Assembly: GCA_009693235.1 (NCBI GenBank)
Contig: SHXR01000012.1
Span: 808 to 64,807, forward strand
Origin: Betaproteobacteria bacterium
GTDB taxonomy: Bacteria; Pseudomonadota; Gammaproteobacteria; Burkholderiales; SG8-39
Length of the DNA stretch: 64,000 nt
Reading direction: 5' to 3'
Part shown: positions 28,498-60,319 of the stretch, in pieces
Position numbering within the stretch: the stretch's first letter is position 1
Layout: the number at the start of each line of letters is the position of its first letter
Position numbers and translations under genes: made by a program
Notes under the pieces: model-generated
What the model saw: the letters and a program-made list of their open reading frames with translations, nothing else
Database searches by the model: none
What the model was told of the DNA's origin: nothing

Positions 28498-28707
28498 ATG
28501 ACCCAGCCTGCAAAAGTCGACCCCGAAACCATTCGTTCGCTCGCCGCTGCCCACGGCGTCACCATCGAGCGCTCCGCCGCAGAGCGTATCGCCGATGCAT
28601 TCGGTGCGAACCTCGCGATCAGTCAAACGGATGCCCATCGGCTGCCGTTCGATCTTGAGCCGTCTGCCTGGGGGCCCATTGCGAAGCGCTGCGGTAGCCG
28701 CCCATGA
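28498..28707 (+). CDS. Small (69 aa) protein preceding amidase, GatC/AtzG-like partner
   Basis: MTQPAKVDPETIRSLAAAHGV...LPFDLEP. Stop overlaps the amidase ATG; size and C-terminal EP motif resemble amidase partner subunits. Confidence 0.55.
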   Translation: MTQPAKVDPETIRSLAAAHGVTIERSAAERIADAFGANLAISQTDAHRLPFDLEPSAWGPIAKRCGSRP

Positions 28708-30113: not shown

Positions 30114-30136
30114 ACATTTAGCTTTGTGGACTATCC

Positions 30137-32130: not shown

Positions 32131-32171
32131 CCGAGCGCCGCGTGTCCGAGAAATCTTTGCGAGGAAGAGCC

Positions 32172-37016: not shown

Positions 37017-37110
37017 TGAACATCCTTTCGATGGCGGTCGCGCAGTGCAGCGCACGGAAGAGACGCGGCCGACGGGTATCATAGCGGACTGCCCCGAAGC
37101 TACCATCGCA

Positions 37111-40098
37111 ATGAAGATCGAAGGCTCGCAAGCAATCGAACCGCCGCCGCAACGACAATTCACGGTGTCATTTCATCCGCGCGTCGGTGATTCCGCGCTG
37201 GCCGCCCGCCTGCGTCGCGAAGTGGATGGCGAGATCCTGTTCGATGCGCCGTCGCGCGGCCGCTACTCGACCGACGCGTCGATCTATCAGATCGACCCCG
37301 TCGGCGTGGTGATACCGCGATCTGAGGAAGCAGCGCGCATCGCGATGCAGATCGGTATCGAAGAAGGTGTGCCCGTCCTGCCGCGTGGCGCGGGTACCTC
37401 GCAGTGTGGCCAGACGGTCGGTGCGGCGCTGGTCATCGATAACTCGAAGTACCTCAATGCGGTGGTTGAACTGAACGTCGCAGAGCGCCGCTGCGTGGTG
37501 CAACCCGGCGTGGTGCTGGACACCTTGAACGCACAATTGCGCCCGCATGGACTGTGGTTTCCGGTCGACGTCTCGACGAGTGCGCAAGCGACGATTGGCG
37601 GCATGGCGGGCAACAATTCGTGCGGCTCGCGCTCGATTCGTTACGGCAACATGGTGCATAACGTCCACGCGATCGATGCCTGGCTCGCCGATGGCAGCGC
37701 GATGCGTTTTGGCCCGCACACGGAACTTTCCGCCGGGCCGGCCGCGTATCGTTCGATCATCGATAAGGTACATGCGATCGTCAGGCGCGAAGCTGACGAG
37801 ATCGCGCTTCGCTGGCCGAAAGTTTTGCGCCGTGTCCAGGGCTACAACATCGACATGGTGCAGCCGGATGGGCCGGCACATAATCTTGCGCATCTGTTGG
37901 TCGGTTCGGAAGGCACGCTCGCCTATTCGCGGCAAGTCCATCTGAATCTCTCGCCGTTACCGAAGGTGAAAACGCTTGGTGTGTGTCACTTCGCCTCGTT
38001 CTATCGCGCGATGCAAGCGCCTGAGCACATCGTGCAGCTCGATCCGGATGCAGTCGAGTTGGTCGATCGCACCATGTTGGAACTTGCGCGAGCCAATCCG
38101 GCGTTTCGCGCCATCGTTGATCGCTGTGTGAAGGGTGAACCGGAAGCGATCCTTCTCGTGGAATTCGCAGGCGACGATAGGGCGGCGCAGATCGCCAAAC
38201 TGAAGCGACTGGTCGAGCTGATGGGGGACCTGGGCCTGCCGGGCAGCGTGGTGGAAGTGACGGATGAAGGCGTGCAAAAGGCCCTCTGGGAAGTGCGTAA
38301 AGCCGGCTTGAACATCATGATGTCGATGAAAGGCGAGGGGAAACCCGTCTCGTTCATTGAAGACTGCGCCGTTCCGCTCGACCATCTCGCCGAGTACACG
38401 CGCCGTCTCACCGAGGTGTTCACCAAACACGGCACGCGCGGCACATGGTATGCGCATGCGTCGGTCGGCACCTTGCATGTGCGTCCGATTCTCAATATGA
38501 AAGAGGGTGGCGCGGGCCAATTGCGTGCCATTGCCGAAGAAGCGTGCGAACTCGTCCGTGAATACAAAGGCGCCTATTCCGGTGAACATGGTGATGGACT
38601 GGTGCGCTCGCAATGGATCGAACCCATCATCGGTGCGCGTCTGATGCGTGCGTTGGAAGAAATCAAAGACCTCTTCGATCCACGCGGACTGATGAATCCG
38701 GGCAAGATCGTGCGGGCCCCACGTCAAGACGATCGCACCTTGTATCGCTTCAAGCCGGGCTATCGTGCGCAGCCGATCACCACCGGGCTCGACTGGTCGG
38801 AATGGGATCAGGGCGATCGTACCGACGGCGCGGGTGGATTGGCCGCCGCCATCGAGATGTGCAACAACAATGGCCATTGCCGCAAGTTCGATGCGGGCAC
38901 CATGTGCCCGTCTTTTCGCGCCACGCAAGATGAGCAGCATCTCACACGCGGGCGGGCCAATACGCTGCGCTTGGCGGTATCGGGACAGCTTGGGCCGGGT
39001 GGCTTTACGAGCGATGCGGTGCGCGAGGCCATGGACCTTTGCGTGAGCTGTAAAGGCTGCAAGCGCGAATGCCCGACCGGCGTCGACATGGCGCGGATGA
39101 AAATAGAATTTCTGCATCAGGTTCATAAAGAGCAAAGCTATTCGCTCAAGGACACGTTGATCGCGTATCTGCCGCGCTATGCCCCGTGGGCGGCGAAGCT
39201 GTCATGGCTCCTCAATGCCACCGAGAATGTTCCGCTATTGGGGGGGCTATTCAAGCAAGCGCTGGGATTGGCGGCACAACGATCGTTGCCGCGCTGGCAG
39301 AGCGACACCTATCTTCAAACGCCGGCCCCCAGGGCAACCGGCAACTTAACCGGAGCAGAAGTAGTGTTGTTGGTCGACACTTTCACCAACTACTTTGAAC
39401 CGGAGAACGCCCGGGCCGCCGAACGTGTATTGCATGCGGCAGGCTATGTCGTCAAAGTCGTGCGCGCGGCAGCTGGCGATCGCCCGCTGTGTTGCGGGAG
39501 AACATTTCTGGCGACCGGAATGATTGATCAGGCACGCGCTGAGGCCAGCCGCATGGTCGCCGCGTTGGCGCCGTACGCAGAGCGCGGCGTTCCGATCATT
39601 GGGCTAGAACCATCGTGTCTGTTCACGTTGCGGGATGAGCTGCACGCCATGAAGTTAGGCGACAGGGTTGCGGCAATCGGCCGGTGCGCGGTGTTGTTCG
39701 AAGAGTTTCTCGCGCGCGAACAGAGCGCAGGCAAGCTCAAGCTCGTCTTGCAGCCGATTCGCGCCAAGCAGGCCTTGCTCCATGGGCATTGCCACCAGAA
39801 GGCGTTCGGAGTGATGTCGGCGGTCAAGCAGACCCTCGGTCTGGTTCCCGATTTGAAGGTGGAGACGATCCAGTCGAGCTGTTGCGGCATGGCGGGTGCC
39901 TTCGGCTATGAAGCCGCCCATTTCGAGGTGTCGATGAAGATGGCGGAAGCGTCGCTCCTGCCCGCGGTGCGCAAGGCCTCCTCTGACACATTGATCGTGG
40001 CCGACGGCACCAGCTGTCGGCATCAGATCAAGGACGGTGCCCAGCGCGATGCGGTGCATGTTGCGCGAGTCTTGGCTGAGGCGCTCGGCCCACAGTGA
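37111..40098 (+). CDS. FAD-linked oxidase / 4Fe-4S / CCG-domain 2-hydroxyacid dehydrogenase (YdiJ-like)
   Basis: YSTDASIY, PRGAGTS, GSEGTL, GEHGDG, CNNNGHC, CVSCKGCKRECP, HGHCHQ, CCGMAG, GTSC. Confidence 0.92.
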   Translation: MKIEGSQAIEPPPQRQFTVSFHPRVGDSALAARLRREVDGEILFDAPSRGRYSTDASIYQIDPVGVVIPRSEEAARIAMQIGIEEGVPVLPRGAGTSQCGQTVGAALVIDNSKYLNAVVELNVAERRCVVQPGVVLDTLNAQLRPHGLWFPVDVSTSAQATIGGMAGNNSCGSRSIRYGNMVHNVHAIDAWLADGSAMRFGPHTELSAGPAAYRSIIDKVHAIVRREADEIALRWPKVLRRVQGYNIDMVQPDGPAHNLAHLLVGSEGTLAYSRQVHLNLSPLPKVKTLGVCHFASFYRAMQAPEHIVQLDPDAVELVDRTMLELARANPAFRAIVDRCVKGEPEAILLVEFAGDDRAAQIAKLKRLVELMGDLGLPGSVVEVTDEGVQKALWEVRKAGLNIMMSMKGEGKPVSFIEDCAVPLDHLAEYTRRLTEVFTKHGTRGTWYAHASVGTLHVRPILNMKEGGAGQLRAIAEEACELVREYKGAYSGEHGDGLVRSQWIEPIIGARLMRALEEIKDLFDPRGLMNPGKIVRAPRQDDRTLYRFKPGYRAQPITTGLDWSEWDQGDRTDGAGGLAAAIEMCNNNGHCRKFDAGTMCPSFRATQDEQHLTRGRANTLRLAVSGQLGPGGFTSDAVREAMDLCVSCKGCKRECPTGVDMARMKIEFLHQVHKEQSYSLKDTLIAYLPRYAPWAAKLSWLLNATENVPLLGGLFKQALGLAAQRSLPRWQSDTYLQTPAPRATGNLTGAEVVLLVDTFTNYFEPENARAAERVLHAAGYVVKVVRAAAGDRPLCCGRTFLATGMIDQARAEASRMVAALAPYAERGVPIIGLEPSCLFTLRDELHAMKLGDRVAAIGRCAVLFEEFLAREQSAGKLKLVLQPIRAKQALLHGHCHQKAFGVMSAVKQTLGLVPDLKVETIQSSCCGMAGAFGYEAAHFEVSMKMAEASLLPAVRKASSDTLIVADGTSCRHQIKDGAQRDAVHVARVLAEALGPQ

Positions 40099-44602: not shown

Positions 44603-46225
44603 CTACGCCGCCGTAGTGCCGCGCTCGCTCCTGCGCCGTGCCAGGTCGGTGGCGACCAGGTAGGTCCACACCGGAGGTTCCTTGGCAATGTGAAAGGCGC
44701 GCTTGCGATCCCGCACTTCCTGCTCGCCCACCGTCAAGCGATCGCGATGCCGCAGAAACTCGACCCATGACTCTTCCACCCACTGCTCGACATAACGACC
44801 CGCGTTGGCCGGGTCGCGAAACAATGCCCATGAGATCGCACCGGCGCGGAGCCGCAATCGCCGGCTTTCCTGCATCAGCGTCGCGAAGGGTTCTTCATTT
44901 GCTGGGTCGATGAGATATTCGATCATCACTTGCACTGGCCCCTCGTCATGATCGATCGGCGTGGCCATCGCAGGCTCCGGCCAGTAGCGGGACGGCGTTA
45001 GGTCTTCCTCGGCGACGCCGGTGACAGGATAAAACCGGATCAAGGTGATGCTTACGAGTGCGCCGCATGCCGCTACGGCGAAGGCGGCGGAAATGGTCCA
45101 AACGCTGGCGATCTGTCCCCATATGGCTGACCCGAACGCGCCACCACCCATGAACGCCATTTGCATCGCCGCCAGGCCGCGACCGCGCACCCAGGCCGGT
45201 AGAAGAAATTGTGCGGTGACGCCGAGGATCGATGCAACCGTCAACCAGGCATAGCCCGCCATCACCATGGCGAGCGCAAGCATGATGAGGTTGGTCGACA
45301 AGGCAAACGTCATCGATGCCATCGCTTGCATGGCGATCGCGCTGCTCACCAATTGATCGCGCGAGAGCTTGGTGCGAAGCCACGTCATGGTCGGCAGGAC
45401 GATGATCGCGCCCAGACCGAACAGGCCGAACAACATCGTGTAGGTGCTCGATGCGCCATCCAGTTCGTCCCGCACGACGACCGGCAATAAGGCGAGCTGT
45501 ACGATGGCGAAGAAAAAATAGGCAAAGCTGCGGATGAGCACGGCACGCAGCGCAGGCGTCTGACGTGCGAACTGCAGGCCGACCCGGATAGCGCCGAAAA
45601 ATCGCTCCGAGGGCAGTGTGCTCGCCCGCGCACGGGGCCTGCGCCAGCGCACCAGCATGACCGTGAGCGCGAGCATCGCCACGCCATTGATCAGGTAGAC
45701 GTACGCCGGTTCGCCCCAGGCGATGATGATGCCGACGATGGTCGGGCCGAAGATGCGCGAGGCGTTCATCGACGCGCCGTTCCAGACCACCGCACGCGGC
45801 ACGGCGATGCGCGGCAAGACCTCTTGCATGATTGATGAGTAGGCGGGCAGGCGAATGGCGAAGGTCACACCCATCGCCAGTGATGCGATCAACAAGAGAG
45901 CAGGCGACAAGTAGCCGGCGAGAATCGAGATGCCGACGGCGAAACTTACGAAGGTCACCAGCGAATAGGCGACCACAATGATGCGCCGACGATCGACCAG
46001 ATCAGACAGCGCCCCGCTGGGTAGGGCAAGCAGAAACGCGGGCAGCGCGGTGAAGCCCTGCAATAGCGCGACTTCAAGCGGTGTGGCGTTGAGTGAAGCC
46101 ATCAACCAGCCGGACGCCGCCTCATGCATCCATCCACAGAGATTAGCGCCGATCCACAGCCCAAACAGCAACTTAAACGGCCGCGACGCCCAAGGATTGT
46201 CAGAGGGCGTCACAGTAGTCGTCAA
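44603..46225 (-). CDS. MFS transporter (MFS_3 type with C-terminal soluble domain)
   Basis: GALSDLVDRRR motif A, about 12 TM segments, C-terminal GPV.V.IEY...RRLRAGA..W. TTG start overlaps the upstream TGA. Confidence 0.9.
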   Translation of the reverse strand: MTTTVTPSDNPWASRPFKLLFGLWIGANLCGWMHEAASGWLMASLNATPLEVALLQGFTALPAFLLALPSGALSDLVDRRRIIVVAYSLVTFVSFAVGISILAGYLSPALLLIASLAMGVTFAIRLPAYSSIMQEVLPRIAVPRAVVWNGASMNASRIFGPTIVGIIIAWGEPAYVYLINGVAMLALTVMLVRWRRPRARASTLPSERFFGAIRVGLQFARQTPALRAVLIRSFAYFFFAIVQLALLPVVVRDELDGASSTYTMLFGLFGLGAIIVLPTMTWLRTKLSRDQLVSSAIAMQAMASMTFALSTNLIMLALAMVMAGYAWLTVASILGVTAQFLLPAWVRGRGLAAMQMAFMGGGAFGSAIWGQIASVWTISAAFAVAACGALVSITLIRFYPVTGVAEEDLTPSRYWPEPAMATPIDHDEGPVQVMIEYLIDPANEEPFATLMQESRRLRLRAGAISWALFRDPANAGRYVEQWVEESWVEFLRHRDRLTVGEQEVRDRKRAFHIAKEPPVWTYLVATDLARRRSERGTTAA

Positions 46226-47838
46226 ACGTGCGCCGGCATGCCGCCCATGCGGGCCGGCGCCGCACGCTTTCCGGATCCTCTTTGTGGCGCACTCGGTAAG
46301 GCGAAGCCTTGTTGAAAGCTCACCTGTGTGACGATCGCGAATTTCCACCAGAAGCCGCCGATGAGCACGGATATTCCGGCGATGGGCAACAAGATTGCGG
46401 GGTCAACGGGCGCTATCAGTGCGACAAAGAAAAGCAGCGCGGGGAGGATGTGGCCGGTGCTATGGATGATCGGCGCGAGATCATCCAATGCGCGACGCGC
46501 AAGCGGCGGGATACCGTCTTGTTTGGCCATGCTGCGATAGGTGTGGAAGAGTGCCGCATTGACGATGGTGAGAATGAGCCCTGCTCCAACAATCATCAAC
46601 GATGGTTTGACTGCTGCAAAGCCCGTCAGCAATGCGATGGCACCCACGCCTTCAACAAGACCGCTGGCGAGAATCATCGCGGGAATCAATGGCGCTCGCC
46701 ATGCGGGGATACCTTTGGCCGCGTGCAGGATCTGCGCCTGGCAGTAGACAAAACCGATCGCGGCAAACGCAATGAGCGTCTCGATCACCGGATGCGGCCA
46801 GATGAGCTCCGCGCCTAACGCGCCAAATAACACCACCACGATATAGAGCTCACGCGACATCCATGAGGTATTCGGTCGTGAAAACGCGCGCCAGAAGCGT
46901 TGTTGTCGTCCGATCTTGAGAAAAACACACAACAGACCGATCGACATCAAGCCCGCACCAAGTAGATAGAACTTGGTGAGACGGGCCGGCTCAATCAGCC
47001 CCACGGTGCTTGCAGCATATGCGGCAAAGATCAAGCCGCCGGCCATTCCGCCGAAGCACCAGTTCATCGCCGCGCGCCAATCCCAGAATGTCTGGAGCTT
47101 GCCCACCAGCGGGTTGCTGAGATCGGCCATGCGTTCATCGTCGTTCTCATCTACGCCGATATCGCGGCCGGGTGTGGCCGGTGCCTCGTAGAGATACTTG
47201 ATCTGCGGATCGGTGCCGAGCTCCGCATGCATCTGGAAGCTTTTGTTGTTGGCCACCAATTGCGAAACATTGCTTGCCGCATTGTTGAAGTCACCGAACG
47301 TGATCGCCTGGGCAATACAGGAGGCTGAACACGCCGGCGTCACATCCAAGTCGACGCCGGGCGTGAGGCCACGCTCCTTTGCTTCGTCGACCTTTTCCAC
47401 ACAGAACGTACATTTCTGCGCTACGCCAAGCCGCTCGGGATGCGCAACAGCTTTCTCTTGCTTGGTCTCGACGCCGTAATACCAGCGCTCATCATGGACG
47501 ATGGTGCGCGCCTGATAAGGACATGACACCGCGCAGTAGGCGCAACCGATGCAGACGTCGTAGTTCATCGTGACGAGGCCGTCGGCACGTTGCTGCGTGG
47601 CACCGGTGGGACATACCGGTACGCAAGGGGGTTCGGCGCAATGTTGGCAGCCGGTCACCATGAACACGCGTTCGACATCTGGGAACGTGCCGGTCTCGAT
47701 ATCGAGCACGCGCCGCCATTGCACGCCGGGTACGGTGTCATTCGAGTGCTTGCAGGCGATCGTGCAGGTTTGGCAACCGACGCAGCGGTTGAGATCGACC
47801 ACCATGCCCCAGCGCAAGGTTTTTTCTGTATCGCTCAT
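46222..47838 (-). CDS. Fused 4Fe-4S electron-transfer subunit (PadC/DmsB-like) and membrane anchor (PadD/DmsC-like)
   Basis: CVGCQTC..AC, CQHCAEPPC..VCP, CIGCAYC..SCP, CTFC...PAC...C, then QTFWDWRAA, SWMSRE and hydrophobic helices. Confidence 0.88.
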   Translation of the reverse strand: MSDTEKTLRWGMVVDLNRCVGCQTCTIACKHSNDTVPGVQWRRVLDIETGTFPDVERVFMVTGCQHCAEPPCVPVCPTGATQQRADGLVTMNYDVCIGCAYCAVSCPYQARTIVHDERWYYGVETKQEKAVAHPERLGVAQKCTFCVEKVDEAKERGLTPGVDLDVTPACSASCIAQAITFGDFNNAASNVSQLVANNKSFQMHAELGTDPQIKYLYEAPATPGRDIGVDENDDERMADLSNPLVGKLQTFWDWRAAMNWCFGGMAGGLIFAAYAASTVGLIEPARLTKFYLLGAGLMSIGLLCVFLKIGRQQRFWRAFSRPNTSWMSRELYIVVVLFGALGAELIWPHPVIETLIAFAAIGFVYCQAQILHAAKGIPAWRAPLIPAMILASGLVEGVGAIALLTGFAAVKPSLMIVGAGLILTIVNAALFHTYRSMAKQDGIPPLARRALDDLAPIIHSTGHILPALLFFVALIAPVDPAILLPIAGISVLIGGFWWKFAIVTQVSFQQGFALPSAPQRGSGKRAAPARMGGMPAHV

Positions 47839-50561
47839 GCGGCAACCTTCGCGGCTTTGTAGAGTTTGACCCGCACGATGTCGGAGCCGCTACCGGTCGA
47901 GTCGGTGAGTGACAAGGAGAGCGCCGACACGGAATTCAAGCTCGGCATATTCAGGTCTTTGGCGAACGGCGTCTTCCAGTGATCGAATTGGCCGATCATG
48001 ACCAGCGTATCGGGCCGGATGCCTTCGCGCAGCACCGCATTGCCGTACGTAATGCCGGTGACCGATTCGATTGCGACCGCATCCCCTTCGGCGATGCCCA
48101 ATCGTTTGGCCGCCGACCGATTGATGATCACACCACGATGTCCGGAGATGTTGTCGGCCACTTCACTGATGAGCGGAATGCCGACGTTCGCGCCCCATGA
48201 GTACTGCATGCTGCGTGCGGTGAGCGCCCAAAATGGATACAGATCGGGGTCGCCGCCATGTTCCCGCACATGTTCCAGCCAGATTTCCGGAAACGGCTGA
48301 TAGGTGGGCATGAACTCGTATTCCTTCAATTGCTCATTCCACCATTGGATGCCGCTCTCATGCAGACGATGCGCCAACTCGCGTCCATGGCGAACCACCC
48401 GTTCTTGATAGGGCAGCTCAAAGCGCAGGTTTTGCCGCACCATCGAGGGATACAGGTACCAGTCGAGCTGCGAGAAGGTGCCCAGCATATAGCCGTGCTC
48501 CTTGAACCAGTCGAGACCATGCACCGCTTTGCCCTCTGAAAGCTCGTGGCTCGCTGCCTTGGCGACGGCCTCCCAGATTTCTTCGCGCGAGTGACGAATA
48601 GTGGGGTCGATCGAATAGTCGAAGCTCTTCTTGCGTAAGCCCATGCCGGCGGCGCCGTGATTGATCGCCTCGTTGTACTCCTCGAGGATGCCTGTGCGCT
48701 TGGCGAGTTCGGTCGACACATCGGTGAGATCCATGCAATCGACCGCATTGTCGATCACCGGTTGACGGATCGCCCAACCTTCGTGTTTCCAGAATTGCTG
48801 GATGAACTTGGTGCTGCCGATGCGAATGAGTTGCAGGCTTTCGAGGTCGGTGGCATCGGGCAGCAACACGTCAGCAAAATGGTTCGTTTCGTCATCGGTG
48901 TAGGCAAACGCCACGATGAACGGAAACTCGGCGAGCCGCTCGGCGACTTCGGGGGCGTTCCATGACGAGATCGCCGGATTGGTGCGATAGCAGAACCAGA
49001 TTTCCGGATTCGTTTGGAGGGGCCAGTTGGCCGGCTGCTCTTTTTGGAAGAGCCAGGGCAGATGCGCGGGCCCGAGGGCCGGCGACCACGGCGAATTCGA
49101 TGACAGCGGTACCAGCGTCTTGAATGCGTTGCGAATATCGGGTTTGGAGGCCCAGTCCGCCTTGGTGGTTGGATTGAACTGATACGTCATGAAACCATCG
49201 GGGCCCGGTTGCACGGAGCCGGTGCGACTCGCCGCCGGACGTACGAGTTTGACGGTTGTGCCCAAGGTGCCGCCCGGTACTTCGAGGGCGCCCACCAGCA
49301 CCGCGAGCATCGTGCGTGCCCAGCAGGTGTGATAGCCGCCCCAGCCGTTGTTCACGCTCTTGCCCAGCATCACCGCAACCGGCCGGAACGGCAGGGTCAT
49401 GCCTTCGATGTCGATCGTCTGCCCGATGCAGGCGTGTGCGAGGTACTCGTCCGCGACCTTGCGGATGATTGCGGCGGGCACATCGCATTCACCGGCCGCC
49501 CACTCGGGCGTATAGCCCTTGACATGATCGAGCAGCAGTTGAAATGAAGGCTTTGCGAGCGCAGCGGCATGTTCAATGATTTCGCCGTCCGGTCCCATCT
49601 CGATGCCCGCAATGGAGTAGGTGCCGGTCAGCGCCGCATCGCCGATCACTGCGTCGTGTGGCTTGGCGGTTTGATCGCGCGCATCGAAAATCAAGGGCTT
49701 CTTCGTTGCGGCGTCGCGCAGAAACCAACCGTTCGGGCCGACCAGATACGGTGAATTCGAGCGCTCCTTCAAGTAAGGAACGTCGCACACTTCCTGCCAA
49801 TTGCGCTCATGGATGATGCGATGGATGAGTCCGAACAGAAACGCCGCATCGGTCTTTGGCTTGATCGGCACCCATTCCGCTGACAACGCGCCGGTGATCG
49901 ATAGATGCGGCTCGACCTGCACCCGCTTGGCGCCGCGCACGCGCGCATCGGCTTCGCGCCAGATCCCCACCACGCCCGAAGACGCTTCGATATTCGCGCC
50001 GCAATTGATCACATAGTTCACATAGGGCGTATCGGGCGAGACGATGAAGGCGCGATGCCAGAGCTCGCCGTAGAGATGCTCCGAGTGGTAGCACTTGATG
50101 CCTTGCCCGGCGCCGTAGCCTTGATCGATCGGTCCCCAAGCCGCCATGAATGCAGGGAACGTGCCCATGTATTGCACTGGTGTGCCACCACCGCCGGTGG
50201 ACACCGCGACCTTCGGATAGCCCGATGCATCGATAAGGCCCTTGGCGCGAATTTCACGCAGCTTCGCACTGACGATATCGAGGGCTTCATCCCACGAAAT
50301 CGGCACAAAGCGAGGATCCTCGTGGCGGCCCTTCTTGGGATTGGTCCGCTTCATCGGCTGCTGAATGCGATTGGGGTTGTAGGTTTTCTGGATCAACCCA
50401 TACGCTTTCACGCAGACCCGCCCGCCGCCAGGATGCTCGTTCTTGATGTCGTAGTTCGACGCGAGGCGCACCGCAACGCCGTCTTTCACCTCGACCTTCA
50501 TGAGATCGGGTCCGGCGACGCATTGGTAGCAGAAGATCGGGACTTTCTTGGAATCGCTCAT
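47835..50561 (-). CDS. padB: DMSO-reductase family molybdopterin oxidoreductase, phenylacetyl-CoA:acceptor oxidoreductase (PadB)-like
   Basis: CYQCVAGPD, HPGGGRVCVKAYGL.QKTYNP.R...PMKRTNPKKG..EDP.FVPISWDEALD, ADVLLPD, RSMQYSWG, GQFDHW. No Tat signal. Confidence 0.8.
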   Translation of the reverse strand: MSDSKKVPIFCYQCVAGPDLMKVEVKDGVAVRLASNYDIKNEHPGGGRVCVKAYGLIQKTYNPNRIQQPMKRTNPKKGRHEDPRFVPISWDEALDIVSAKLREIRAKGLIDASGYPKVAVSTGGGGTPVQYMGTFPAFMAAWGPIDQGYGAGQGIKCYHSEHLYGELWHRAFIVSPDTPYVNYVINCGANIEASSGVVGIWREADARVRGAKRVQVEPHLSITGALSAEWVPIKPKTDAAFLFGLIHRIIHERNWQEVCDVPYLKERSNSPYLVGPNGWFLRDAATKKPLIFDARDQTAKPHDAVIGDAALTGTYSIAGIEMGPDGEIIEHAAALAKPSFQLLLDHVKGYTPEWAAGECDVPAAIIRKVADEYLAHACIGQTIDIEGMTLPFRPVAVMLGKSVNNGWGGYHTCWARTMLAVLVGALEVPGGTLGTTVKLVRPAASRTGSVQPGPDGFMTYQFNPTTKADWASKPDIRNAFKTLVPLSSNSPWSPALGPAHLPWLFQKEQPANWPLQTNPEIWFCYRTNPAISSWNAPEVAERLAEFPFIVAFAYTDDETNHFADVLLPDATDLESLQLIRIGSTKFIQQFWKHEGWAIRQPVIDNAVDCMDLTDVSTELAKRTGILEEYNEAINHGAAGMGLRKKSFDYSIDPTIRHSREEIWEAVAKAASHELSEGKAVHGLDWFKEHGYMLGTFSQLDWYLYPSMVRQNLRFELPYQERVVRHGRELAHRLHESGIQWWNEQLKEYEFMPTYQPFPEIWLEHVREHGGDPDLYPFWALTARSMQYSWGANVGIPLISEVADNISGHRGVIINRSAAKRLGIAEGDAVAIESVTGITYGNAVLREGIRPDTLVMIGQFDHWKTPFAKDLNMPSLNSVSALSLSLTDSTGSGSDIVRVKLYKAAKVAA

Positions 50562-50615
50562 GGTGTTTATTTTTGGAATTGCCGACGCGTCCGCGTGGAC
50601 TAACTTGATGCAATC

Positions 50616-52583
50616 CTACGCTGGAATGACGAGTCGGCCCTTGATGATTTTACGCGTGGGCGTGAGCGGCATCTCCGGGACGATCACCAGCCGCTCCGGC
50701 AGTTTGATCTTGGCGATGTTTTGGGCGGCAAGGTACGCGACAATTTCAGCGAGCGTGATCATCGCGACGCCCGGGCGCAACATCACAAAACAACAAGCCC
50801 GCTCGCCTAACACCGGGTCGGACATCGGGATGATCGCCGACTGCAAAATGACCGGATGCGCATCCAGTAGGTCTTCGATCTCGCGCGGATTGAACTTCAC
50901 GCCGCCACGGTTGATGATGTCTTTGCTGCGGCCGGTGATGGTGACGTTCCCTGCATCGTCCATGCTCGCGAGATCGCCGGACCGATACCAGCCATTGGCG
51001 GTGAATGCGGTCCGGTTGGCAGCCTCGTTGTCATAGAAACCGGGAAAGACGAGGCAGCCGCGCACTTGCAATTCCCCCTCCTCACCAGATGGGAGGGCTC
51101 GATCATCGGCATCCGCGATGCGAATTTCGGTGCCTGGGCTCGCGCGTCCGGCACTCGTCGCTGCGACGTCAAGCGCATCGCCTGGCCGTGAATAGAGCGC
51201 GCCTTGCGTTTCGGTCATACCCCACAGTTGCGTGACCGCGCATTGGGGTGTCTTCGCTTGCAACCATCGCACCAGCTCCGGCGGACAAGCGCTGCCCGAC
51301 AGGATCGCCAATGTGAGCGACGATAAATCGTGCTTATCGAAGAGGCCCTGTGCGCGCATGGCGGCCGCATGCGGCGGACCACACCAGAGGCCGGTTGGGC
51401 GATCGCGTTCGATGGTCACGGCGAGATCGCCTGGCGTGAACGCGGGCAGCAAAACCGTAGCCGCGCCTACTGCCCATGCGACATGCAGGCTATAGAGCCC
51501 GTAGAGGTGGGTGAACGGCGCGGCAGACAGAATGCGATCGTTGGCTGTCACGCGATGTTCCGGCGCGCCGACCCACGCGTTGGAGAGCATCGTGTGATAC
51601 GGATGTGGCACCCCTTTTGGGGCTGAAGTGGTCCCCGATGTGTAAAGCAACAGGAACGGATCGCTCGCAAGCGGCGCGGGATAGCGTGCATCGAGCGGCG
51701 GCGAATGTTCGATGAGGGCGTTCAACGACAAGGTGCCCTCGACTGGCGTGCCGACGGCAACGATAACCTGCAAAGTTGGTATGCGCGATTTGAGCGCGAG
51801 ATAGGTGCGCGCGGGCGACCAGTCTTTGGTGTCCGCCAAGCCGATCGCGGCGACGGCGCGGCTATGTGCAAGCAAGGCCTCCAGTTCCGCGCCCCGATAG
51901 GGCATGTGCAAGGTGCAAAGCACCGCGCCCAAGCGGCAGATGGCCAGATACGCGACCGCGAACTCGATCGTATTGGGCAATTGCACAGTAACCACTTCGC
52001 CCCGCGCGACGCCCGCTTGCCTGAGGCCCTCTGCGAGGCGTGATACTTGATCGGCTAAACCGCGATATGAAATGACGCGATCGCCTTGCATGAGCGCGGG
52101 CGCATCGGGCCGTTCTTTGACGTGCCGACTGATCCAGCCATGCAAGGTGTCATCGCGCCACCAACCGTGGCGGATATATTCGCGGACGAGCAGCGGATCG
52201 AATCGCAATGCCGCGCGCAACCGCAGCGCGCTTTCGGAAAACTTGAAACGTTCCGCGAGTGGGATCACGCGTTCCGGCCGAAAACGCCGTCCGCCGCCAA
52301 GATCGAGGAGATAGGCTTGCTGGCCGGTGCGAAAGCGGCGACTCTCCTCATGATTGCGGATGAACATGACCTGTTCGCGGGAGAGCCCGATGCGTTCGCT
52401 GATTTGCGCATCGGCAAGGCCCATCCCTTCGCGCTGTCGCTCGATCTCAGCCCAATTCAAGGTGCGGATCGGATCGCCCTCCCGCACCTGCAGGTTGTTG
52501 CTCATCTGGAAGATGGTCTCGCCGAACGTGGCGATCATCTCATCGGTTATGCCGAGTTGGGCTCGGGAGAGGCCGCGTGCCAT
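50616..52583 (-). CDS. Aryl/alicyclic acid-CoA ligase (AliA/EntE-like) with an extra ~120-aa N-terminal domain
   Basis: GWW.D.TL, YTSGTTSAPKG, WGMTE, GWYRSGD, GRSKDIINRGG.K, TPTRKI. The N-terminal extension is not part of the AMP-binding fold. Confidence 0.88.
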   Translation of the reverse strand: MARGLSRAQLGITDEMIATFGETIFQMSNNLQVREGDPIRTLNWAEIERQREGMGLADAQISERIGLSREQVMFIRNHEESRRFRTGQQAYLLDLGGGRRFRPERVIPLAERFKFSESALRLRAALRFDPLLVREYIRHGWWRDDTLHGWISRHVKERPDAPALMQGDRVISYRGLADQVSRLAEGLRQAGVARGEVVTVQLPNTIEFAVAYLAICRLGAVLCTLHMPYRGAELEALLAHSRAVAAIGLADTKDWSPARTYLALKSRIPTLQVIVAVGTPVEGTLSLNALIEHSPPLDARYPAPLASDPFLLLYTSGTTSAPKGVPHPYHTMLSNAWVGAPEHRVTANDRILSAAPFTHLYGLYSLHVAWAVGAATVLLPAFTPGDLAVTIERDRPTGLWCGPPHAAAMRAQGLFDKHDLSSLTLAILSGSACPPELVRWLQAKTPQCAVTQLWGMTETQGALYSRPGDALDVAATSAGRASPGTEIRIADADDRALPSGEEGELQVRGCLVFPGFYDNEAANRTAFTANGWYRSGDLASMDDAGNVTITGRSKDIINRGGVKFNPREIEDLLDAHPVILQSAIIPMSDPVLGERACCFVMLRPGVAMITLAEIVAYLAAQNIAKIKLPERLVIVPEMPLTPTRKIIKGRLVIPA

Positions 52584-52586
52584 CGT

Positions 52587-53516
52587 TCAGGGCTTGTTCG
52601 CTGCGGCAGAGCGCGCTTCTTCCGTGCGCAGGATTGGATCGGCTTGTGGGGCCTGTGTGGCGATTGGGCATACCCGCATGCATTCGAAGCATTGTGCAAA
52701 CCAGCCGCCCGATCCGGCCGACACCTTGTACCAAAGCATCTTGCTGTCCGGGTCGAGCAAGCGATCGGCGCCGTGCGAGCGGTTTTCATCGCGCACCGCT
52801 TCAGCGAGGATCTTCGGGACGGCCTCATATTCCTGGGTGAGTTCCGCGCAAGCAGCCATGTCGTAGCGCGAACTCTTTTGCTTCCCTGCATCATCGATTT
52901 CGCCCGATAGACACTGCGCCGGGCAAAACTTCATGCAAGGGGTGCGGCCAATCGAGCGATACATGCTCACACAGGAAGGGGCCGGGCAGGGGTTTTCCGC
53001 CATCGGTTGATCAGGCGGCAATTCGAGTTCGGTGAAGACCGATGCGTAGTACATGAAACCGAACTGCGGATGCAGCAGGATGTCGCCCGCGAAGGAGCGT
53101 GCACCGATCCCGGCAATTTCCGCATGCAATTTCAGGCTTTGTAGCGGCACGCGCGGACCGCTTTCCGGATCGATGTCAGGCGGCACATAGACCGATGGCG
53201 CGCCGAATTTTTGCTCAATGAAGAAGGCGCAGCCGTAGGCCACCGTGTATCCCCGTACCTCGGTGGAGCCGGAGTAGGCCATCGCCTTCGCTGGGAGTTG
53301 CCAAGCACCCTGCGTTTGCCCACCGACGCCCAATGAGATCACCGATTTCACGCGCGGCATGAGATCGGTGGGGCGGTGGCCTGGCGGTGCGATACGTTCG
53401 AGCGCGGCGAGATCGGCGACCCCGACAGCGAGCGCACCGCGCTTTTTGCAGTAATCGAAGATCGCCTGCTTGGCGGCGATTGGGTCGGCGGGGAATCCTT
53501 CGCTTGGGTGTCTCAT
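52587..53516 (-). CDS. Epoxyqueuosine reductase / reductive dehalogenase-fold (cobalamin + 2x4Fe-4S) protein
   Basis: GA..VGVAD, P..KSVIS, LKLHAEIAGIG, LLHPQFG....SVFTELEL.PD, C..C..CMKFCP and C...CFECMRVCP. Confidence 0.75.
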   Translation of the reverse strand: MRHPSEGFPADPIAAKQAIFDYCKKRGALAVGVADLAALERIAPPGHRPTDLMPRVKSVISLGVGGQTQGAWQLPAKAMAYSGSTEVRGYTVAYGCAFFIEQKFGAPSVYVPPDIDPESGPRVPLQSLKLHAEIAGIGARSFAGDILLHPQFGFMYYASVFTELELPPDQPMAENPCPAPSCVSMYRSIGRTPCMKFCPAQCLSGEIDDAGKQKSSRYDMAACAELTQEYEAVPKILAEAVRDENRSHGADRLLDPDSKMLWYKVSAGSGGWFAQCFECMRVCPIATQAPQADPILRTEEARSAAANKP

Positions 53517-53523
53517 GGTGGTC

Positions 53524-54300
53524 TTAGCCGTATGTTTTCATCCAACCAAGCCCGGCAGTTGTCTCGCCTTGAGGGCGATATTCACAACCAATCCAACCCT
53601 TGAAATTGAGCGCGTCGATGACATTGAACAGATGCGGATAGTTCATCTCGCCGACATTGGGTTCGTGGCGACCGGGTACCCCGGCAATCTGGAAATGCGC
53701 GACATCGTGAATGTACCGTTGGATTTTGGTCGTGACATCGCCTTCGACAATTTGGCAATGATAGAGGTCCATCTGCACTTTGAGATTGGGCGCCCCGACT
53801 GCTGCGAGGATGGCATGCGCCTCATCTTGCCGGTTAATAAAGAAGCCTGGAATGTCGCGCGTATTGATCGGTTCGATGAGGGCGGTGACCCCTTGTTTGG
53901 CCGCCTGCCCGGCCGCGTAACGCAGATTCTCGATAAACGTGCGATGCATCGTCTGGCGATCAGCGTCCGGTGCGACGAGTCCGGCCATCACATGTATCTG
54001 TTTGCAATCCAGCACGCCCGCATAATCAAGGGCCTGCGCAATGACCCCGCGAAATTCCGCCTCGCGGCCCGGAATGGCGGCCATGCCGCGTTCACCATGA
54101 TCCCAATCGCCGGGTGGCATGTTGAAGAGCACCTGTTGCAGTCCGTTGTCCTGCAATCGTTTGGCAATATCGGTGGCCGCGAATTCATAGGGAAACAGAA
54201 ATTCGACCGCGCGAAAACCATCCTTGGCGGCCGCTGCGAAGCGATCCAGAAAAGGAAGCTCGGTATAGAGAAACGACAGATTGGCGGCGAAGCGAGGCAT
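53524..54300 (-). CDS. hyi: Hydroxypyruvate isomerase / 2-oxo-tetronate isomerase (Hyi/OtnI)
   Basis: [43 protein letters not shown]. Confidence 0.9.
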
Positions 54301-54339: not shown

Positions 54340-55140
54340 TTATTTGGCCGGATTCTCGACCATTTCGGCGGTGCAGAACGCGCCGCCTTGATGCGCGTCA
54401 GCGATCGCATCGCCGGTCGTGGCCGGATGCGCACGCAAGACCTCGGCGGCGAAATCTTCGCTGCGATCGACCGGCCGATAGCCAAGGCATTGGGCGTTGG
54501 TGTTGTCCCACCAGCCCCGCGCGTTGTCGGAGGCGCCATAGACGATTGCGAAGCGGATGTCCGGATGCTCCAATCCGATGCCGATCAATTGCGCGAGATC
54601 ACGCGGACTGATCCAGATCGACAGCCTGCGCACATCGATCGGCTGCATGGCGGCATTGCCGATGCGAATGCAAAGCGACGACACATCGTACTTGTCGGCA
54701 TAGAGGCTTGCCACGCCTTCACCGAACATTTTAGAGAGTCCATAGCGGCCATCGGGCCGCGGATACGGGGTGTGATCAATCCGCGCGGTGCGCTTATAAA
54801 AGCCCATCGCGTGATTGCTGGTCGCAAAGATGACCCGCTTAACGCCATTCCGCCGCGCGGCCTCATAGAGATTGTAGGCGCCAATGATATTGGACTGCAG
54901 GATCGTCTCCCATGGGCCTTCCACCGAATAGCCGCCCAGATGAATGATCCCATCCACGCCTTCGGTGACGCGCAGCATGTCGTCCAGCGACGCGCAATCG
55001 CCCGCCATGAATGATTCGCTCGCGCCGAGTGTGGTAAGCGGGCGCATGTCGGACAGGCGCAAGCGATAGCGATTGGCGAATTCCTTCCGGAGGAAGGTGC
55101 CTACACCGCCGGTGGCGCCGGTCATTAGGATTGATTTCAT
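54340..55140 (-). CDS. NAD-dependent oxidoreductase, uronate dehydrogenase-like
   Basis: MTGATGGVG, FATSNHA.G, PDGRYGLSK, IRIG, WISPRD, YGASDN...WWDN. Confidence 0.85.
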   Translation of the reverse strand: MKSILMTGATGGVGTFLRKEFANRYRLRLSDMRPLTTLGASESFMAGDCASLDDMLRVTEGVDGIIHLGGYSVEGPWETILQSNIIGAYNLYEAARRNGVKRVIFATSNHAMGFYKRTARIDHTPYPRPDGRYGLSKMFGEGVASLYADKYDVSSLCIRIGNAAMQPIDVRRLSIWISPRDLAQLIGIGLEHPDIRFAIVYGASDNARGWWDNTNAQCLGYRPVDRSEDFAAEVLRAHPATTGDAIADAHQGGAFCTAEMVENPAK

Positions 55141-55143
55141 CTC

Positions 55144-55293
55144 GAGAAGAGGGAAGGGAAAAGGGAGAAGGGAACGCCAACCGGTTTGTTGGCGTCTATT
55201 CTGGCATTCAACGCCGCGCGGCGTTGCATGCCATGCGGCTATCTTGAATGGGGAATCATTGTTACCCTTCACCTTGCACTTTTCACTCTTCAC
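55144..55293. repeat. Two opposed degenerate heptamer arrays flanking a divergent intergenic region
   Basis: GAGAAGA-GGGAAGG-GAAAAGG-GAGAAGG (55144-55171) and CTTCACC-TTGCACT-TTTCACT-CTTCAC (55267-55293). Confidence 0.55.
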
Positions 55294-57947: not shown

Positions 57948-59225
57948 ATGACCCTCAATGGACGCTTGATCATCGCGGGTGTGTCAGCCATCGTGCTGCT
58001 TGGCGCCTGCGGCAAAGAAGAACCGAAACCAGCCGCCAAAGCTGCGGCGCCCGCCGCTCCGGAATCGATCACCATCCGCATCGGACACGTCGGTCCCTTG
58101 ACCGGTGGCATCGCCCACCTCGGCAAAGACAATGAAAATGGCGCGCGTCTTGCTGTGGACGAAGCCAACGCCGCCGGCATCAAGATCGACGGCAAAGCGG
58201 CAAAATTCGAATTGATCGCCGAAGACGACCAGGCCGATCCAAAGGTGGGTACGACCGTAGCGCAAAAGCTGGTGGATGCCAAAGTCGCCGGGATCGTTGG
58301 TCACTTGAATTCAGGGGTCACGATTCCTGCTTCGGAGATCTACAACCAAGCCGGTATCCCGATGATTTCCGGTTCGGCAACCAACCCGCAAGTGACCGAG
58401 CGTGGTTACAAAGTGACGTTTCGTGTGGTCGGGCGTGACGACCAACAAGGCCCCGCCATTGCGCAGTACCTGAGCGCAGAGCGCAAGCCAAAGGTCGTTG
58501 GATTGATCGACGATGCTACCGCCTATGGCGAAGGCATTGCCAACGAAGTCGAGAAGACGCTGAAGGCTGCCGGTATCAAAGTTTTGCCGCGGGAAAAGGG
58601 TACCGACAAGACCACGGATTGGAAGGCGGTGCTGACCAAGGTCCGCCGGGGCAATCCCGACGCAGTGTTCTACGGTGGTATGGACGCAACGGGCGGGCCG
58701 CTGTTAAAGCAGAGTCGCGAGCTTGGTATGAAGGCGGTCTTTTCATTCGGCGATGGCGCTTGCACCAACAAGATGAGCGAGCTGGCTGGGCCCGCCGCTG
58801 AAGGGATGATCTGCTCACAGGCCGGCTTGCCGCCCCAGGCGGCAAGCAAGAAATTTCTCGACGCGTACAAGGCGAAGTTCAACGTCGAGCCGATCCTCTA
58901 CGCGCCGTTTACCTACGATGCGGCGAATCTGCTGATCGCGGCAATGACGAAAGCCAACTCGGCTGATCCGGCCAAGTACCTGCCTGAGCTGGCAAGCATC
59001 AGTCATGCGGGCGCTACCGGCAAGATCAAGTTCGATGAAAAAGGCGACCGCAAGGACGCCGAGATCACGATATTTACGATGAAGGGCGGCAAGATCGAGC
59101 CCACTGCGGTATTGCAGGGTGGCAAGTCGACCAAGTTCGACGACTTCATCAAGGCTGCCGCGGCAGCTGCTGCACCGGCTGCGCCCGCTGCGGCGGAACC
59201 TGCCAAGGACGAAGCGAAAAAGTAA
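57948..59225 (+). CDS. livK: Branched-chain amino acid ABC transporter substrate-binding lipoprotein
   Basis: Lipobox LLGAC, IGHVGPLTG, EDDQADP, GHLNSG, SATNP, YDA. Ala/Pro-rich tails. Confidence 0.93.
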   Translation: MTLNGRLIIAGVSAIVLLGACGKEEPKPAAKAAAPAAPESITIRIGHVGPLTGGIAHLGKDNENGARLAVDEANAAGIKIDGKAAKFELIAEDDQADPKVGTTVAQKLVDAKVAGIVGHLNSGVTIPASEIYNQAGIPMISGSATNPQVTERGYKVTFRVVGRDDQQGPAIAQYLSAERKPKVVGLIDDATAYGEGIANEVEKTLKAAGIKVLPREKGTDKTTDWKAVLTKVRRGNPDAVFYGGMDATGGPLLKQSRELGMKAVFSFGDGACTNKMSELAGPAAEGMICSQAGLPPQAASKKFLDAYKAKFNVEPILYAPFTYDAANLLIAAMTKANSADPAKYLPELASISHAGATGKIKFDEKGDRKDAEITIFTMKGGKIEPTAVLQGGKSTKFDDFIKAAAAAAAPAAPAAAEPAKDEAKK

Positions 59226-59250
59226 GGAATCCATCCCCTTAGGGTGGAAG

Positions 59251-59279
59251 AAGCGGCGCCGCTTGGCGCCGTTTTTTTT
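59251..59279 (+). terminator. Rho-independent terminator/attenuator after livK
   Basis: GCGGCGCC-GCTT-GGCGCCGT hairpin followed by a T8 run. Confidence 0.8.
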
Positions 59280-59301
59280 GGCACAGGAGAAGACAGCGCG
59301 G

Positions 59302-60288
59302 ATGGAGACGTTTCTCCAACAGCTTTTCAATGGGCTCACCCTCGGGGCCGTCTATGCGGTAGTCGCGCTAGGCTATACGATGGTCTACGGGATCATCCAG
59401 CTCATCAATTTCGCACACGGCGAAGTCGTGATGATCGGTGCGATGGTCGCGTTCACCATCATTACATTGCTGGCGAATTCCGGCTTACCGCCGGTTGCGA
59501 TCGTATTGATCGGAACGTCGTGCGCCATTCCGGTGTGCATGATCGTCGGCTATGCGTTGGAGCGTATCGCGTATCGCCCGTTGCGCAACGCCCCGCGTCT
59601 GGCGCCCCTTATCACGGCGATCGGCATGTCGATCGTGCTGCAGCATGTGGCGATGATGGTGTGGAGCCGCAACAATCTGGCGTTTCCACAGATCATCAAG
59701 ACCGAGACCTACGATATTGCCGGGGCGTCCGTCACCAATATTCAGATTGTTATCGTCATCCTGTGCCTGGTGCTGATGGGCGGGCTCTTGTGGTTGGTGC
59801 ATCGCACGCGGCTTGGCATCTCGATGCGGGCCACCGCGCAAAATCCCAGGGTGGCGGGTCTTATGGGGGTCAATATCAATCGCGAAATCGCCATCACGTT
59901 TGCCATCGGCGCGGCGCTTGGTGCGGTGGCTGGTGTGATGGTGGGTTCGTATTACGGCATTGCCCATTATCAAATGGGTGCGTTGCTTGGACTGAAGGCT
60001 TTCTGCGCAGCCGTGCTTGGTGGTATCGGTAATGTGCCAGGCGCCATGGTCGGGGGGCTGTTGCTGGGCGTCATCGAGGCATTGGGCGCTGGCTACATCG
60101 GTGATCTCACCGACCTTTGTGCGGTGCCGTGGTTGTTTGCAGGCCTTGCCGCGCGCTGTGCGGCCGGTGAGCATATCAGCCTGTTTGGTAGCAACTATCA
60201 AGACGTGTTCGCGTTTCTGGTGTTGATTGCGGTGCTGGTCTTGCGGCCTTCTGGGCTGTTGGGGGAGCGGGTGGGGGATCGGGCGTGA
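59302..60288 (+). CDS. livH: Branched-chain amino acid ABC transporter permease
   Basis: QQLFNGLTLG..YA..ALGYTMVYGI..LINFAHG, GLKAF.AAVLGGIG, RPSGLLG. Confidence 0.93.
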   Translation: METFLQQLFNGLTLGAVYAVVALGYTMVYGIIQLINFAHGEVVMIGAMVAFTIITLLANSGLPPVAIVLIGTSCAIPVCMIVGYALERIAYRPLRNAPRLAPLITAIGMSIVLQHVAMMVWSRNNLAFPQIIKTETYDIAGASVTNIQIVIVILCLVLMGGLLWLVHRTRLGISMRATAQNPRVAGLMGVNINREIAITFAIGAALGAVAGVMVGSYYGIAHYQMGALLGLKAFCAAVLGGIGNVPGAMVGGLLLGVIEALGAGYIGDLTDLCAVPWLFAGLAARCAAGEHISLFGSNYQDVFAFLVLIAVLVLRPSGLLGERVGDRA

Positions 60289-60319
60289 AGGCCGGGAAAC
60301 GTGCAATGAGAAACTGGAA

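Follow-up and report, generated by a model that had tools for sequence, protein, structure and literature searches.

Organization and conservation of the gene run

The DNA analysed here is a stretch of 64,000 nucleotides (nt) from a Betaproteobacteria bacterium (contig SHXR01000012.1 of assembly GCA_009693235.1), hereafter the window, and our subject is a run of five tightly packed open reading frames (ORFs), all on its minus strand, whose coordinates were confirmed against the window's ORF list. Gene 1 (52587-53516) encodes FeS309 (P0001), a 309-amino-acid (aa) Fe-S protein with a predicted QueG/RdhA/CblC fold, and gene 2 (50616-52583) a 655-aa ligase (P0002) made of an N-terminal extension and an ANL body. 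Gene 3 (47835-50561) encodes MoA (P0003), a 908-aa putative catalytic subunit carrying a molybdenum-bis(pyranopterin guanine dinucleotide) (Mo-bisPGD) cofactor, which would face the cytoplasm and is related to PadB but distinct from it. It is followed by the gene of its partner FeS/NrfD (P0004, gene 4, 46222-47838), a 538-aa protein that combines a four-cluster ferredoxin with a membrane anchor, and by gene 5 (44603-46225, with an open frame reaching 46348), which encodes an EntS-like transporter of the MFS_3 family (PF05977). What is new here is the presence in one operon of two modules, FeS309 with the ligase (module A) and MoA with FeS/NrfD (module B); the operon itself is a variant built from known kinds of enzyme.

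Read from the sequence, the spacer between genes 1 and 2 is 3 nt (52584-52586) and that between the ligase and MoA genes 54 nt (50562-50615). The MoA and FeS/NrfD genes overlap by 4 nt, and the FeS/NrfD stop overlaps a TTG at 46225 (TTGA), the start of the MFS_3 gene being either this TTG or a GTG at 46213. The tight packing with its two 4-nt overlaps, described earlier by a model that saw only the sequence (the sequence-only reading), is therefore real. The same reading had the QueG/RdhA-like gene leading the run, which is not so: the run extends beyond 53516, with a 2-oxo-tetronate/hydroxypyruvate isomerase gene (53524-54300, minus strand) that stops 7 nt before the ATG of FeS309 and is itself preceded in the run by an SDR gene (54340-55293). 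A divergent DUF255 gene begins at 55307. The GC content stays near 0.60 throughout the window, which gave no Rfam matches, and a promoter and terminator scan of it was uninformative, with counts below the shuffled expectation.

All seven genes occur in the same order in three other species records (L001, L002 and L005) with 72-97% protein identity, and the operon order is present in all four searched genomes of the window's genus (G000, G508, G531 and G554) as well as in freshwater metagenome runs from two studies. Given this recurrence, the order is no assembly accident, and the tight or translational coupling of the genes together with the same order in relatives supports an operon. Six sequencing runs contain the stretch, none of them listed as RNA. 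One of the three records (L001, CAMDRJ010000101.1) is titled Klebsiella pneumoniae; its locus shows 86-97% protein identity to the window, and it looks like a taxonomic mislabel of a metagenome-assembled genome (MAG).

Two autonomous modules and their joins

The run is composed of two autonomous two-gene modules, as became apparent from 80 FeS309 loci in genomes, 80 FeS309 loci in metagenomes, where many contigs are short, and 80 MoA loci. The ligase directly follows FeS309 in 78 of the 80 genome loci and 72 of the 80 metagenome loci; of the eight metagenome loci without it, seven are on contigs that stop at most about 550 nt past FeS309, and the eighth (L188) has 3230 nt there with no ligase match. 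Likewise, FeS/NrfD follows MoA in 72 of 80 loci. Few of the records with these MoA loci lack a MAG label, and a single one comes from a named strain, Lacisediminimonas profundi (L022). No third gene is conserved beside the FeS309-ligase pair in more than 16 of 80 loci, and the larger neighbour clusters overlap FeS309 or the ligase themselves, so that we read them as alternative-frame shadow ORFs. The undescribed single pathway proposed by the sequence-only reading is only partly borne out, as the operon is made of two separately conserved modules.

The neighbours of MoA point to a place for a ligase in module B loci. A different AMP-ligase accompanies MoA in 21 of 80 loci, on the same strand and with a median start about 2 kb upstream, and in the window P0002 takes this upstream place, no second ligase being found with P0002 by tblastn in L001, L002 or L005. 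The other recurrent neighbours in these 80 loci are SDR (19), family III CoA-transferase (18), an XDH-type Mo protein (14) and FlK-type thioesterase (11). Subsets of the 80 FeS309 loci carry Liv-type ABC genes (11), TctC (11) or a gene with the Pfam Dehalogenase domain (10). The last encodes a 420-aa Dehalogenase and Fer4_16 protein that lies about 3 kb upstream of the FeS309-ligase pair in 10 of 80 loci, e.g., L150 (7099-8361) and also L116, L120, L121, L141, L143, L161, L162, L164 and L166.

In a sample of 201 genomes of the window's family, adjacency of modules A and B was seen only in the window's genus (4 of 4). Over all loci, we found the modules near each other at no more than three places, the operon of this genus being the only one of them with a tight run. 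In the second place, an alphaproteobacterial MAG (L126, identical with L031), the order is MoA, FeS/NrfD, about 600 nt, FeS309 and ligase. Its proteins are 60-73% identical to those of the window and no closer to them than unlinked alphaproteobacterial copies, which argues that the join arose at least twice; unlinked copies from Burkholderiales share 85-87% identity with the FeS309 of the window. In the third (L149), the FeS309-ligase pair is followed by an opposite-strand gene and then, 2.2 kb away, by a three-subunit PadB-type enzyme with 27% identity. Additionally, contig C21 of genome G500 (identical with G448) carries, at 247499-262441, FeS309 and, at a distance of 11 kb on the other strand, a 76% MoA relative, an arrangement that is intermediate between the unlinked and joined states.

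FeS309, a minimal member of the QueG/RdhA superfamily

In a Pfam scan P0001 matched no family, Dehalogenase (PF13486) included, and with the QueG model TIGR00276 it scored 23.7 bits (cut-off 200). An AlphaFold2 (AF2) model built from 33 homologues, with a predicted local distance difference test (pLDDT) score of 88, retrieved reductive dehalogenases, QueG and CblC in Foldseek at E 9e-9 to 8e-4 and probability 1.00, with PceA (4ur3, E 9e-9) and QueG (5d0b, E 3e-8) at the top and NpRdhA and CblC also among the matches. The family profile agrees when run against the Protein Data Bank (PDB), where it matched QueG at E 7.5e-20, a reductive dehalogenase (RDH) complex (8q4h) at 1.2e-18 and RdhA chains at 1e-18 to 5e-11. 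Seven cysteines (C177, C182, C194, C223, C276, C279 and C283) are invariant in the 33 sequences and C198 is present in at least 90% of them, giving the pattern Cx4Cx11Cx3CP ... C ... CxxCxxxCP. On its modelled core fold and cysteine motifs FeS309 is a minimal member of the QueG/RdhA/CblC superfamily with two predicted [4Fe-4S] sites, in line with the sequence-only reading. Corrinoid binding is presumed from the fold and the shared A-x-x-AG-x-G stretch only. In the profile alignment, the presumed position of the QueG catalytic Asp is Leu in FeS309.

The FeS309 family is narrow, with 264 representatives at E <= 0.001 among 1.84 billion; another search returned 769 homologues. It also had to be considered that FeS309 might be the QueG of this genome, and it is not, since the true QueG lies on contig C1 (G000:C1:9762-10769) and scores 489.5 bits against the same cut-off. 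A text-term search of the literature, supplements excluded, returned no paper that joins epoxyqueuosine reductase, reductive dehalogenase and CoA ligase, and PMC12219181, which concerns QueG-like/RdhA-like terms, makes no mention of ligase or CoA. Separately, contig C6 of the same genome carries a second such module (L169, 6433-9365), with two adjacent QueG-like Fe-S ORFs of 262 and 312 aa that are 28-29% identical to FeS309 over parts of their length, followed by two 197-aa ORFs, one with AMP-binding_C_2, and ending in a Meth_synt_2 protein, with Liv-type ABC ATPase genes upstream.

The ligase and its putative N-terminal adaptor domain

Following an extension of 125-150 aa, P0002 shows AMP-binding (PF00501, E 1.6e-76) and AMP-binding_C (PF13193, E 1.3e-12) domains, and its translation holds TSGTTSAPKG, WGMTETQ, YRSGD, GRSKDIINRGG and PTRKIIK, which we take to be the named motifs of ANL enzymes. 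Judged by domains and core motifs, the body (50616-52148, minus strand) is an ANL acyl-CoA ligase. It stays under every NCBIfam equivalog cut-off, and the closest solved chains are aryl-AMP ligases of the DhbE/EntE type (6e8o, E 1.1e-64). The aryl-acid specificity that these top PDB matches suggest was not adopted, the equivalog scores being far under the cut-off.

The extension (52149-52583, minus strand, residues 1 to about 145) is helical and is the best-conserved part of 22 ligase partners, with a mean column identity of 71% and the motifs SHNxQxRxGDPxR and LGGGKRFR. It has no Pfam match even at E 10 and no Atlas match; modelled alone (pLDDT 67), it gave nothing in Foldseek at E <= 0.001, the best E being 3.1. 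Two distant homologues of FeS309 (P0292 and P0306) have C-terminal extensions, which show no similarity to it (best E 3.9 and 0.13). A helix-turn-helix (HTH) nature found no support, as sigma region 4 rows appeared only at E 4-8 in the Foldseek search with this low-confidence model and no HTH match was significant.

Complex prediction suggests a different role for the extension. FeS309 paired with ligase residues 1-150 scored 0.81, 0.81 and 0.64 in three runs, while three controls scored 0.00; at least 71% of the contacts are common to the runs, with a partner pLDDT of at least 61. The mark used here is reached by 58 of 80 solved complexes and by 2 of 110 mismatched pairs, a rough calibration because own alignments were supplied for both partners. 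On the side of the extension, the predicted interface is formed by the invariant SxNxQxRxGDP loop, which is disordered when the domain is folded alone, and on the side of FeS309 by residues 38-47, 118-145, 171-175 and 212-225, the contacts at 130-145 surrounding the A-x-x-AG-x-G motif common to QueG and RdhA. The extension is accordingly predicted to dock on FeS309, the model backing binding without demonstrating it. Since docking is predicted and no HTH match is significant, 'adaptor domain' is a better label than the 'HTH' of the sequence-only reading, which was right about an extra N-terminal domain.

In one alphaproteobacterial clade (L131, L122, L134 at about 10892-12340, and some ten similar loci), the partner that follows FeS309 is only about 470 aa long. 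These proteins keep the extension almost unchanged and have a degenerate P-loop and no C-terminal domain, so that FeS309 seems to need the extension rather than ligase chemistry.

MoA and FeS/NrfD, a family apart from PadBCD

P0003 carries Molybdopterin (PF00384) and Molydop_binding (PF01568) domains, whereas Molybdop_Fe4S4 (PF04879) was not detected, and its N-terminus (MSDSKKVPIFCYQC) shows no twin-arginine signal. P0004 likewise starts without a twin-arginine leader; it consists of a ferredoxin part at about residues 1-225 (Fer4_11, Fer4_7) and an NrfD/DmsC-type anchor at about 245-538, the anchor matches being weak (NrfD 25.1 bits, DmsC 19.4 bits). Together these features are consistent with an anchored complex oriented towards the cytoplasm. 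The best NCBIfam matches of P0004 are DsrO, QrcC, ArrB and NrfC, and QrcB is among the matches of MoA. In some relatives, e.g., L178, L179 and L175, FeS/NrfD is split into two genes.

As no NCBIfam model of PadB exists for scoring, orthology was judged against the Mo subunit of a canonical pad cluster, which was sought via PadI (NF045766) in 401 genomes of the order, two of which passed the cut-off. One of them (G193) has PadE, PadG, PadH and PadI all above their cut-offs, with the three ORFs of a Mo enzyme (867, 277 and 298 aa) and FdhD coming next. P0003 aligns with this Mo subunit over its full length (residues 11-906) at E 1.2e-80 and 28-31% identity, whereas Psr/Arr chains from the PDB align only partially. 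At the FS0 site, six of the seven MoA-family rows of the alignment, that of the window included, have CxxCxxxP followed by Asp, and one (L180) carries an extra Cys; the PadB-type rows have CxxCxxxC, and Molybdop_Fe4S4 of Pfam detects the G193 subunit. Cys157 of MoA, which may be the Mo ligand, is matched by a Cys in the PadB-type row from G193. The MoA family is large, with 3968 matches among 8000 candidates scored, many at least 70% identical across classes, and 432 loci in species genomes. PadBCD is thus the closest studied system, but with its low identity to PadB and its CxxCxxxP in place of the CxxCxxxC motif MoA belongs to a separate, much larger family.

The Pad-like complex of the sequence-only reading consequently keeps its nearest relative, but with the PadC and PadD parts fused it comprises two genes, and P0003 was rejected as a canonical PadB ortholog on its identity, its fused partner subunits and its degenerate FS0 site. 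The absence of padE-I noted in that reading agrees with our search, as the window's genome (79% complete) yielded no gene of the PadI type, the best NF045766 match there, 42.5 bits against a cut-off of 700, being P0004 itself. PadBCD converts phenylacetyl-CoA to phenylglyoxylate without oxygen (PMC9765128), and P0003 and P0004 may oxidise an acyl-CoA in the same way, a suggestion that follows from analogy. Judged by title and abstract, none of the papers found on PadBCD deals with this fused-anchor family. A selenocysteine in MoA relatives was also considered and rejected, as the in-frame TGA flags in G166 and G251 are terminal stops with the match running past. Besides, genome G145 has a bona fide PadI, yet its sole P0003-like gene is a 56% relative on another contig (L177 being G145:C56 and L176 being G145:C6), which adjoins FdhD and has no FeS/NrfD gene within the 20 kb fetched.

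The transporter and neighbouring genes

Gene 5 matches MFS_3 at E 8.4e-137 over profile positions 6-518 of 524, which places it in this family, and the MFS_3 gene accompanies the cluster only in L001, L002 and L005. The isomerase gene is conserved in the same three records only. It scores 404 bits with NF043033 (cut-off 325) and 345 bits with TIGR03234 (cut-off 353), and it is probably co-transcribed with the run while belonging to a different pathway family. A four-carbon acid-sugar kinase/decarboxylase, presumably the partner enzymes of a 2-oxo-tetronate isomerase, had no match among the neighbouring ORFs scanned.

Further away in the window, a Liv-type ABC operon (57948-62924; Peripla_BP_6, BPD_transp_2) on the other strand starts 4.4 kb upstream of the run, a transporter type that recurs near the FeS309-ligase pair in other loci. 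A plus-strand cluster at 28704-33880 encodes an amidase, a family III CoA-transferase, an enoyl-CoA hydratase, a TctC receptor and an RraA-like aldolase and represents another CoA-dependent acid route. The ORF at 37045-40098 encodes 1017 aa, in which an FAD-linked oxidase (FAD_binding_4, FAD-oxidase_C) is fused to an Fe-S dicluster and a CCG domain.

Proposed function and alternative explanations

We give an even chance to the operon being a genus-specific join of two modules and a transporter that serves a CoA-dependent catabolic route for an organic acid. In such a route, the ligase would turn an imported or retained organic acid into its CoA thioester, and the docked FeS309 would remove or reduce a substituent, with acid activation and reduction taking place in one complex. 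The Mo enzyme would then oxidise the CoA ester with water and pass the electrons to quinone, and the MFS_3 protein would move the substrate or the product. CoA-ester substrates, the direction of electron flow and the action of both modules on the same compound are what we infer, the chemistry of all steps being drawn by analogy; gene order, folds and families do not allow the substrate to be deduced. A bolder version, which we hold to be doubtful, would make FeS309 a new class of cobalamin-dependent reductase that acts on an acid held by the ligase as acyl-adenylate or CoA thioester and is wired here to a PadBCD-type Mo hydroxylase, so that independently of O2 the substituent would be stripped and the CoA ester then oxidised with water, while electrons might move from one Fe-S chain to the other.

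Several observations weigh against a route shared by both modules. MoA lies within 10 kb of FeS309 in 5 of the 80 genome loci and 0 of the 80 metagenome loci, and FeS309 with the ligase occurs in only 4 of the 80 MoA loci (L001, L002, L005 and L031), leaving module A alone in 75 of 80 and 80 of 80 loci and module B alone in 76 of 80. At the level of whole genomes, a MoA-family gene was present in 26 of 40 FeS309 genomes (40 of the 80 were searched) and FeS309 in 22 of 50 MoA genomes, the other 14 and 28, respectively, being incomplete MAGs without a match; the 22 split into 3 of 26 for L003-L029 (titles mostly Burkholderiales/Betaproteobacteria) and 19 of 24 for L030-L053 (mostly Alphaproteobacteria), with exceptions in both. 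Among the 201 sampled genomes of the window's family, 117 have MoA, 26 have FeS309 and 20 have both, a weak co-occurrence (odds ratio (OR) 2.7, two-sided Fisher p 0.054, uncorrected for relatedness). Moreover, the modules are separated by the roughly 600 nt in L126 and by the opposite-strand gene in L149, the short alphaproteobacterial partners indicate that module A does not always require ligase chemistry, and the isomerase gene is an unrelated gene able to sit in the same tight run. The co-occurrence of the four enzymes suggested in the sequence-only reading hence dissolved on checking into adjacency in one genus plus two independent cases, with no conserved unit.

These data would fit modules that are functionally independent and happen to be adjacent in this genus, each acting on its own acid, like the isomerase gene only 7 nt upstream of FeS309. 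With both modules common in the family, chance adjacency in one genus is plausible; however, the ligase-MoA spacer measures just 54 nt and has no terminator-like site, module B has no second ligase here although 21 of 80 MoA loci carry one at that place, and L126 and L149 provide two more independent juxtapositions, so that we regard independence as a serious but rather unlikely explanation. The Mo module might instead feed electrons, from quinol or through an Fe-S chain, into the B12-type reductase and not be an acyl-CoA oxidase at all. It would then be comparable to OmeAB, the molybdoenzyme-like part of organohalide respiration complexes in Dehalococcoides, or to QrcB/ActB, which lack the cofactor. 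The degenerate CxxCxxxP site in the window's MoA and five of six other family rows, the DsrO and QrcC matches of its partner and the QrcB match of MoA itself would fit such a device, and an RdhA-fold protein requires a low-potential electron source, none being encoded beside FeS309. Yet in most MoA loci an RdhA-like gene is missing and the neighbours are CoA ligases, CoA-transferases and thioesterases, the family stays at least 70% identical across classes including the Cys aligned with that of PadB, an FdhD-type cofactor chaperone adjoins a 56% relative and most FeS309-ligase pairs occur without the Mo module, which makes an electron-input role highly improbable.

As to the substrate, the sequence-only reading had favoured a halogenated, epoxidised or heteroaryl aryl-acetate that would lose its halogen or oxygen and then undergo alpha-oxidation to a glyoxylate. 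The fold is akin to that of the catabolic dehalogenase NpRdhA and the epoxide reductase QueG, a Pfam Dehalogenase gene lies about 3 kb upstream of the pair in 10 of 80 loci, uptake genes of the Liv-type ABC and TctC kinds are repeatedly found in the vicinity and the closest solved ligases adenylate aryl acids. These likenesses are offset by the Leu at the position of the QueG catalytic Asp, the missing Pfam Dehalogenase match, a ligase under all equivalog cut-offs that also lacks H-N-Y, which we take to be the aryl-acid signature, a run without aromatic-ring pathway genes and a MoA just 28-31% identical to PadB. Nothing that was found points to such a compound specifically, and we consider it improbable as the substrate.

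With both modules in one tight run, screening the ligase alone might reveal the substrate of the two; the join is restricted to one genus, however, and does not stand for a general pathway. In uncultured Proteobacteria from soil, freshwater and wastewater, and in those associated with sponges, each of the modules is abundant. If the proposed functions are true, a ligase-tied B12-type reductase would extend cobalamin-dependent reduction, so far seen with organohalides and the tRNA epoxide, to activated carboxylic acids, and the PadBCD-like family would take the O2-independent oxidation of CoA esters with water far beyond the anaerobic degraders of phenylalanine.

Comparison with known systems

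For FeS309, QueG (5d08, 5d6s) is the best profile match (E 7.5e-20), and family members are labelled QueG by JGI. FeS309 differs in its score far below the TIGR00276 cut-off, in the Leu at the catalytic Asp position and in the separate QueG carried by the genome; moreover, the strong profile alignment spans only residues 38-199, the N-terminal part of QueG, presumably DUF1730, and its C-terminal part being unmatched. The reductive dehalogenases (NpRdhA 4ras/6zy1, PceA 4ur3 and 8q4h) share the cobalamin-binding core fold and two [4Fe-4S] motifs with FeS309, with Foldseek E values of 9e-9 to 1e-6 and profile E values of 1e-18 to 5e-11. However, they measure 440-700 aa against the 309 of FeS309, which has no Dehalogenase match, twin-arginine (Tat) signal, RdhB or fused reductase, and their first cluster motif is CxxCxxCxxxCP, whereas FeS309 has Cx4Cx11Cx3CP and a CoA ligase as its partner.

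The ligase body resembles DhbE/EntE (6e8o, 1md9) and the medium-chain and cyclohexanecarboxylate CoA ligases (NF004758, TIGR03208) in its ANL fold and intact core motifs, but it is set apart by the additional conserved 145-residue N-terminal domain and by scores below the equivalog cut-offs. The enzyme facts on PadBCD (EC 1.17.5.1; Thauera aromatica, Aromatoleum) reportedly go back to Rhee and Fuchs in 1999, and its subunits are separate proteins of about 93, 27 and 26 kDa. Like PadBCD, module B consists of a Tat-less Mo-bisPGD subunit, an Fe-S protein with four clusters and an anchor of the NrfD/DmsC type, and in both cases relatives have CoA-activating enzymes and thioesterases as neighbours. 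In contrast to the three subunits of PadBCD, the Fe-S and anchor parts in the window form one 538-aa protein, FS0 has Pro in place of its third Cys, Molybdop_Fe4S4 being undetected, and the company of padEFGHI and padJ was not found in the window's 79% complete genome. The operon described here brings a minimal QueG/RdhA-fold protein and its ligase together with a PadBCD-related but distinct Mo enzyme.

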